Below, piece after piece: positions 2,622 through 3,953 of a stretch of DNA of 64,000 nt. The stretch lies in the NCBI RefSeq assembly GCF_045037415.1, contig NZ_CP173438.1; one strand, written 5' to 3'. Every line of letters starts with the position of its first letter. Position 1 is the first letter of the stretch. Below the pieces are notes generated by a model that saw nothing but the letters and a program-made list of their open reading frames with translations, had not been told where the DNA came from and searched no databases. The position numbers were made by a program, and so were the translations under genes. The stretch comes from Escherichia coli (lineage in GTDB: Bacteria; Pseudomonadota; Gammaproteobacteria; Enterobacterales; Enterobacteriaceae).

Positions 2622-3953
2622 ATGAGGCCAAAAATGGCAATATTGATAACCCAGGACAGGCAAGTCGCAAACCTGACTCCCCCTGAAGGAAAAAGTCGGA
2701 TAACCGTCAGCGTCAAATCAAAAGTAGGTTCCGGCCTGTCTGTCGAATCCCGTTCCGGGAGTCAAACGAAGAGCTGGATTTACCGCCCTTACCTCAACGG
2801 AAAACAGATTAAAATAACGTTAGGCTCCTACCCTGCAATGACATTGTCTCAGGCGCGTGAAGCACATGCAGACGCGCTGGCGCTGGTTAAACAAGGTATT
2901 GATCCGCGTTATGCGCGAAAAACGGAAAAACAGCAAAATGAACAAATGCCGATTTTTTCACAATTATGAAAAAACTGGCTGGCATTCCGTGAAACCAATA
3001 AACCCATTGGGGCGCGTACTCTGGCTGATTATGAGGGAACATATCGCCGCCATCTGGAGAAAGGTTTAGGTTCAGTACGCGTCTGCGACCTGTCCAGAGC
3101 CTACATTTATGAACATCTCATACGGATCAGAAAGACCAGCGCCGAAGGTGTCCGCAAGGGACTTATTCTTCTCAATATGACGCTTGACCATGCCGCTTTG
3201 CAGGGATTGATCGATCACAACCCTGCTCGCTTGCTTAAACCCGCAATGTTTGGTGCCTCAATGGGAAAACCGCGTGAGCGTTGGTTGCCACAAGACGAGT
3301 TGCAAATGTTATGGAAGGCACTGGATGAAGCGGGGTTCGGCGGCGGATCTGTCGCAACCGGAGGGCGAGGCATCGCGTCCAGCGTTATTCTTTCACAAGC
3401 GATTGCTAACGCATTACGCCTCATCATCCTGACGGGGGTGCGACGTTCCGAAGCGGTGAATATGCGTTGGGAGCAGATTAATGGCAACCGCTGGACAATA
3501 CCTGAAACCAAAAACGGTAAAAGTCATATCGTGACGCTACATCCTCTGGCGCTTTCTCTATTGAAGACTCAGCGCATTATTTCAGAAGGCGGCTGGGTAT
3601 TCGAGTCGCTCAGTAAGCCAAGTTTTCCTGTCACCGGTGACGCAATAACTCGTGCTCTTGAACGCCTGAAAACAAAATATATGGCAGAAGTCGCTCCTTT
3701 CTCACCACATGATTTACGCCGCAGCATTGCTACAGGCTGCGCTGAATATCTGGACGCACCAGAACGGCTTATAGAACTTCTGTTAAATCATGTGCCCAAA
3801 GACAGGTTAATCAGAACCTACCAGGTCGGGCAGCAAGCGGAAAAATTACGGAATCTGTTTCTGAAATGGGGGGATTTTATTGAGCATGAGATCATTGAGT
3901 CTGATAATGGTACTCCAGATAATGTTATTCAGATCAGCTTTGGAAAGAGATAG
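2622..3953 (+). pseudogene. P4-type tyrosine integrase, interrupted by two frameshifts
   Basis: Integrase-like translation continues through frames 0 (2622-2969), 1 (to 3069) and 0 (3063-3953); C-terminal HDLRRS and conserved Tyr region present. Confidence 0.8.

Follow-up and report, generated by a model that had tools for sequence, protein, structure and literature searches.

Does the integrase gene of the genomic island at thrW in Escherichia coli ST131 still encode a complete enzyme, and if not, which lesion interrupts it, how old is that lesion, and does it hold the island in place? We addressed these questions in a 64,000-nucleotide stretch of chromosome, analyzed at its full length and referred to here as the window. 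An earlier reading of the letters alone, the preliminary description, had placed two changes of reading frame in the integrase-like gene and had concluded from them that the island is probably fixed.

The GI-thrW island and its setting

The window represents the E. coli ST131 thrW region and carries the published island GI-thrW. It starts with ecpE-ykgJ-yagU and contains a single tRNA gene, thrW, followed by proA and proB; megablast matches this region at 100% identity to numerous E. coli O25b:H4-ST131 chromosomes, that of EC958 among them. GI-thrW has been reported as a 10.8-kb island carrying the EcoMIII type I restriction-modification (R-M) system (PMC3203889, PMC4659465), with a methyltransferase, M.EcoMIII, that methylates RTACN4GTG (PMC3203889, PMC4134206, PMC4659465), and has been described as conserved across ST131 (PMC4134206, PMC5654935).

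The island is bounded by two exact 45-bp repeats, at 2422-2466 and, inside thrW, at 14011-14055, where none is expected by chance. Between these thrW copies lie, in order, the integrase-like gene, an AbiEii/AbiEi pair, hsdR-hsdM-hsdS, and two small genes (Table 1). GI-thrW of EC958 and SE15 has the same genes in the same order, and the 10,812-bp spacing of the repeats in both strains matches the published 10.8 kb. The spacing in the window is 11,589 bp, making an island copy of 11.6 kb, because of an IS1 insertion. This IS1 and an extra A in hsdS are what distinguish the window copy from those of EC958 and SE15; the integrase gene is identical. In the interval 12487-13879, RefSeq annotates only an "ash family protein" and a hypothetical protein, and a Pfam search of the open reading frames (ORFs) there, which covered the small ones only in part, gave no excisionase or AlpA-type match. 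We take the displaced tRNA copy at the integrase end of the island to resemble ptwF of K-12.

Table 1. Features of the thrW region in the window, with positions counted from its first nucleotide
Feature	Position	Strand	Basis or remark
Degenerate lambdoid phage integrase C-terminal remnant, chromosome side of island	2209..2407	+	Kept in empty-site genomes
45-bp copy of the 3' part of tRNA-Thr(CGU), displaced attB half	2422..2466	-	Island boundary adjoining integrase; exact repeat, weak tRNA match
Integrase pseudogene of GI-thrW, tyrosine recombinase, 439 codons, one frame, one internal stop	2634..3953	+	Translation, Pfam, homologue alignment, RefSeq
Overlapping out-of-frame ORF, 70 codons, not a gene	2857..3069	+	Ends at TAG 3067-3069
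In-frame TGA in place of Trp112 codon, sole lesion of the gene	2967..2969	+	Translation, homologue alignment (TGG)
AbiEii toxin and AbiEi antitoxin genes (type IV toxin-antitoxin pair), island cargo	4118..5828	-	ORFs, RefSeq, Pfam
hsdR-hsdM-hsdS type I R-M operon (EcoMIII)	6070..12834	+	hsdS broken by IS1 and an extra A in poly-A run; PMC4659465
IS1, 768 bp, 8-bp target duplication GAAGGTTA, in hsdS	11087..11854	-	Absent from EC958, SE15, and O25b:H4 record
Extra A in hsdS poly-A run	12504-12512		A9 in window versus A8 in EC958 and O25b:H4 record; frameshifts hsdS 3' part
Second degenerate phage integrase C-terminal remnant, inside island, adjoining thrW	13796..13996	+	75-81% identical to the first
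thrW, intact tRNA-Thr(CGU)	14011..14086	-	3' 45 bp (14011-14055) form the other att core

One in-frame stop codon in the integrase gene

Translation of 2622-3953 in one frame gave a full-length integrase with arm-binding, central, and catalytic domains and a single internal stop; the remaining two frames contained many stops. The arm-type DNA-binding domain (PF13356, formerly DUF4102) was matched at residues 12-101 with 63 bits against a cut-off of 27 (E = 3e-17), and the catalytic domain (PF00589) at residues 262-393 of the translation from 2622 with 59 bits against a cut-off of 27.1 (E = 6.6e-16). The central domain (PF22022) was matched weakly. The start of the gene is likely ATG 2634 rather than 2622, because the homologues and the PGAP annotation begin there, a GAGG motif precedes it by 6 nt, and in a Salmonella relative (L005) the ATG farther upstream is not in frame. 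From ATG 2634 the gene is 1320 nt, equal in length to the intact genes of Pectobacterium (L003) and Salmonella (L005).

On the strength of this translation and of the alignments, the integrase is predicted to be disabled by one premature stop, W112* (TGG to TGA), at codon 112 of 439, which falls at the beginning of the central domain. Trp occupies this position in nine of the 10 aligned homologues, as TGG in the two that were read as DNA, and Tyr in the most distant one. At the nucleotide level, the gene aligned without gaps to those of Pectobacterium (82% identity) and Salmonella (76% identity), and the mismatches lay mostly at third codon positions (185 of 239 and 221 of 312, respectively). 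The corresponding dN/dS was ∼0.04, and identity did not drop below 67% in any 60-nt window. At the protein level, the alignment to 10 intact homologues (62 to 91% identity) was collinear throughout. Downstream of the stop, the motifs TGVRRSE, ETKNGK, HDLRR, LNH, and RTY are intact and invariant across this alignment. The invariant columns R274, K297, H363, R366, H390, and Y400 (numbered from 2622) are presumably the catalytic R, K, H-x-x-R, H/W, and Tyr nucleophile.

The sequence is thus that of a member of the tyrosine recombinase family (PF00589), yet it is a pseudogene, having no uninterrupted ORF. A sequence search of the PDB returned only weak matches to solved N-terminal arm domains (3ju0, 3jtz), the labels being "CP4-like integrase" and "Phage integrase," and no catalytic-domain match, so the candidate catalytic residues were not placed on a solved relative. 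The combination of PF13356 with a tRNA 3' end as a target flanked by direct repeats is that of an arm-binding (CP4/P4-type) island integrase.

These results uphold the preliminary description in that an integrase-like gene is present at 2622-3953 and is broken near 2965, and they replace the frame changes that it had placed at about 2965 and about 3065 with a nonsense codon in an otherwise continuous frame. At the second of these places, the sequence in frame reads GGT TTA GGT (G-L-G), the same as in the homologues, and alignment to intact thrW-associated integrases contained no gaps and hence no frameshift. Against a pair of compensating frameshifts, the original frame runs on directly past the TGA with conserved integrase sequence, the gene is as long as its intact homologues with no gaps across 2940-3100, and RefSeq labels the gene "internal stop" rather than "frameshifted." What could resemble a frame excursion is an ORF in the +1 frame (2857-3069) that spans the stop and ends near 3065, although its translation has no similarity to the homologues in the alignment. 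The apparent frame changes arise because this ORF overlaps the stop and ends at the out-of-frame TAG 3067-3069. Three-frame translation and the gap-free protein and nucleotide alignments rule out the two-frameshift model, to which we attach almost no probability. The locus illustrates that a single nonsense codon, when overlapped by an ORF in another frame, can be mistaken for two frameshifts.

RefSeq annotates the integrase as pseudo with an "internal stop" in all three of the records inspected. Both the pseudogene and its correct lesion are therefore already known from that annotation, as the island is from publication. The integrase goes undiscussed in the GI-thrW papers searched, and the word "integrase" does not occur in PMC4659465. 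Beyond correct annotation, the finding is of little importance: this is an ordinary decayed mobile-element gene.

Reality and age of the stop codon

The gene was found at ≥99% identity in 519 of 5,426 complete E. coli genomes, always as a single copy and always on the chromosome. We searched these genomes with queries in which the stop had been repaired to TGG. The full-length 1332-nt query had no 100% match among the 5,426 genomes, and a repaired 84-mer matched all 519 carriers with at least one mismatch and none of them exactly. An intact ORF in another assembly, which would have overturned the reading of a broken gene, was thus found in none of the carriers. Across the 1320 nt of the gene, the stop position included, neither the commensal ST131 strain SE15 nor EC958 differs from the window.

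Some assembly noise is possible in the window, as the homopolymer difference from EC958 at 12504-12512 (A9 versus A8) illustrates, and a gene intact in the organism might in principle have been misread. The stop, by contrast, is a substitution and not a homopolymer indel, and it is shared by independent complete assemblies, none of which has the TGG form. Sequencing or assembly error is ruled out by the unmatched repaired queries, and we regard it as having a negligible chance of explaining the stop; the lesion is real and old.

SE15 (clade A) and EC958 (clade C) belong to separate clades of the ST131 tree (PMC4134206). Because both carry the stop, the mutation most likely predates the diversification of ST131.

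Related integrases at thrW

Among E. coli, no intact copy of the window allele was found. The nearest intact integrase in that species (P0016) is 79% identical in amino acid sequence, and the nearest overall (P0001), from Pectobacterium araliae, is 91% identical; a Salmonella homologue (P0012) is 85% identical. These three thrW-associated integrases have the same length, domain order, and motif columns as the window integrase and differ from it in having TGG (Trp) where the window has TGA.

In two Salmonella loci (L005, L006) and two further E. coli loci (L007, L008), the same 45-bp thrW segment as in the window lies ∼165 nt upstream of the integrase start, in the same divergent orientation. 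Given this shared geometry, we assign the window integrase to a family of thrW-associated island integrases. Cargo differs among these islands: unlike the window, both E. coli loci carry another type I R-M system together with a UvrD-like helicase, and Salmonella L005 carries an Eco57I-type enzyme. The CP4-6 prophage of E. coli K-12 is likewise integrated at thrW, with intF at the same end as the partial tRNA copy ptwF; it is ∼34 kb, and its cargo is different from that of GI-thrW. With CP4/P4-type integrases in general (PF13356; PDB 3jtz, 3ju0, and 3rmp), the window integrase has in common the arm-type N-terminal domain and the tRNA target. It differs from them in lying at the end of the island opposite the intact tRNA, divergent from the tRNA fragment, and in being truncated by a stop.

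As a separate observation, one relative (P0074; 90% identical, from public read assemblies) has an out-of-frame N terminus fused to the correct frame. This arrangement fits a deletion of ∼43 nt between GGAAAAAC repeats that flank the same Trp codon, and would be an independent inactivation at the same spot.

Predicted product and proposed explanation

Taking the domain content, the alignments, and the distribution of the stop together, we hold it to be highly probable that the GI-thrW integrase is the gene of a thrW-specific tyrosine recombinase inactivated by one stop codon. Under this explanation, a single G-to-A transition would have changed the Trp112 codon from TGG to TGA, presumably once and before ST131 diversified. 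Translation would end after 111 residues, leaving the arm-binding domain and omitting the core-binding and catalytic domains, from which we infer loss of integrase function. The island's own enzyme would then no longer support efficient excision or transfer, and this may have contributed to the near-universal retention of the island. The AbiE toxin-antitoxin pair and the R-M system probably also stabilize the island by penalizing its loss. Loss of the integrase before the clone diversified would be a simple explanation for the near-universal presence, in ST131, of GI-thrW and its lineage-specific EcoMIII methyltransferase.

Could a part of the gene instead have been kept as a functional protein, either the 111-residue arm-binding fragment or a 258-residue catalytic fragment begun at ATG 3177? 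The N-terminal ORF does retain its start codon, its GAGG ribosome-binding site, and the whole PF13356 domain, and N-terminal domains of CP4-like integrases have been solved alone as folded units (3jtz, 3ju0). For the catalytic fragment, no in-frame ATG, GTG, or TTG occurs between 2970 and 3177, no Shine-Dalgarno sequence was seen before 3177, and a product initiated there would be without almost the whole core-binding domain. For either fragment, the carriers show no sequence variation on which a test for selection could draw, and the 90%-identical relative P0074, seemingly broken independently in the same region, fits ordinary decay. We find a retained fragment very improbable.

Precise loss of the island

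If the integrase is broken, the island might be expected to stay where it is, as the preliminary description had proposed. We predicted the empty site by joining window positions 2166-2466 to 14056-14356 and sought the resulting 602-bp junction in complete genomes. Four ST131-type genomes (S4, S12, OY019088, and FCI29, of which OY019088 is labeled O25b:H4-ST131) matched it at 100% in one piece. In two island-free genomes for which the flanks were compared (L010, L011), the order is yagU, phage-integrase remnant, thrW, and proA, with no island, and both flanks, 2,466 nt on the left side and 4,301 nt on the right side (6.7 kb), agree with the window at every position. No single-nucleotide polymorphisms separate SE15, EC958, and the two island-free strains over these 6.7 kb, and the flanks consequently gave no placement of those strains in the ST131 tree. 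In addition, the ST131 strains S115, NA101, and NA112 have been reported to be without GI-thrW or M.EcoMIII (PMC4659465, PMC5654935).

Because the att sites are intact and a few genomes are precisely free of the island, GI-thrW can still be lost; it is not strictly fixed, and precise loss is possible although the integrase is a pseudogene. The idea of an island fixed in place thus survives in part: loss of its own recombinase is good grounds for expecting stability, and nearly all carriers have it at the same site with the integrase a pseudogene, but the intact att cores and the precise losses speak against strict fixation. Three routes could account for such rare losses: homologous recombination of one 45-bp att repeat with the other, residual integrase produced when UGA is read through, or the action in trans of a related integrase. 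An att-to-att junction would be the same for RecA-dependent recombination and for a readthrough or trans-acting integrase, and the mechanism is not distinguishable from the junction. We favor homologous recombination as the source of the precise losses.

Readthrough deserves separate consideration, since it would mean that the gene is attenuated and not dead: Trp-tRNA would read the UGA codon rarely, and the wild-type integrase so produced would give rare precise excisions. The residue replaced is Trp, so readthrough would yield the native protein, and some full-length enzyme may be made; in a K-12 reporter, readthrough of UGA by Trp-tRNA was ∼2% at 37°C and ∼4% at 25°C (PMC10570021). The nucleotide after the stop codon in the integrase gene is A. 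An A directly after a stop favors readthrough. UGA readthrough in K-12 is, on the other hand, unusually high owing to an RF2 variant, and levels in ST131 may be lower. The gene has no further lesions, the att cores of the island are intact, and precise att-to-att losses exist, but the lack of other lesions means little when the carriers are essentially identical and the clone is young, and recombination between the 45-bp repeats needs no integrase to yield this junction. Pfam, a limited test, revealed no excisionase gene in the island. Signals for recoding were also sought around the stop: an Rfam scan at a permissive threshold gave no match to one, and the RNA fold of 2960-3040, downstream of the stop, was no more stable than that of shuffled sequence (z = 0.55). 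Weighing these points, we consider an attenuated gene unlikely. Slightly less likely again is the fuller proposal that the Trp-to-UGA change acts as an attenuator, with readthrough giving rare and perhaps growth-condition-dependent excision that accounts for the precise losses.

Selenocysteine insertion or other programmed recoding at this codon was rejected for the same want of an Rfam match and a stable fold, and the homologues have Trp or, once in 10, Tyr at this position, and none has Cys or a stop.

Phage remnants, insertion sequences, and other differences

Two degenerate phage integrase remnants each lie beside a thrW 3' copy (Table 1). Since the empty-site genomes keep the first, on the chromosome side, the second, adjoining thrW, arrived with the island. 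In one of the E. coli relatives (L008), a complete P22-like prophage, whose 372-residue integrase is intact, stands in tandem with the island at the position of the first remnant.

Four differences from EC958 were seen over the 64 kb of the window. Two of these lie in hsdS, which is intact in EC958, SE15, and the O25b:H4 record. At the first, IS1 interrupts the gene, and no complete RefSeq E. coli genome shares the IS1-hsdS junction at 100%. The second, the extra A at 12504-12512, may reflect true slippage in the strain or a sequencing error in the homopolymer; no other true frameshift was found in the island. Judged from its disrupted hsdS, the strain probably lacks EcoMIII specificity and, with it, RTACN4GTG methylation.

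The other differences lie outside the island. A second IS1 (27281-28037, ∼757 bp), 98.3% identical to the first and flanked by a 9-bp duplication, TATTTTTTG, sits at the start of the lateral-flagellar (Flag-2) motA gene and is absent from EC958. Between Flag-2 lafA and fliD, an IS-like insertion of 1,432 bp (32560-33991) with two overlapping transposase-like ORFs is likewise absent from EC958. Near the start of the window, between ykgJ and yagU, lies a short ORF (993-1112) that RefSeq lists as a fragment of a tail fiber assembly protein; it is a prophage remnant standing alone amid core sequence.
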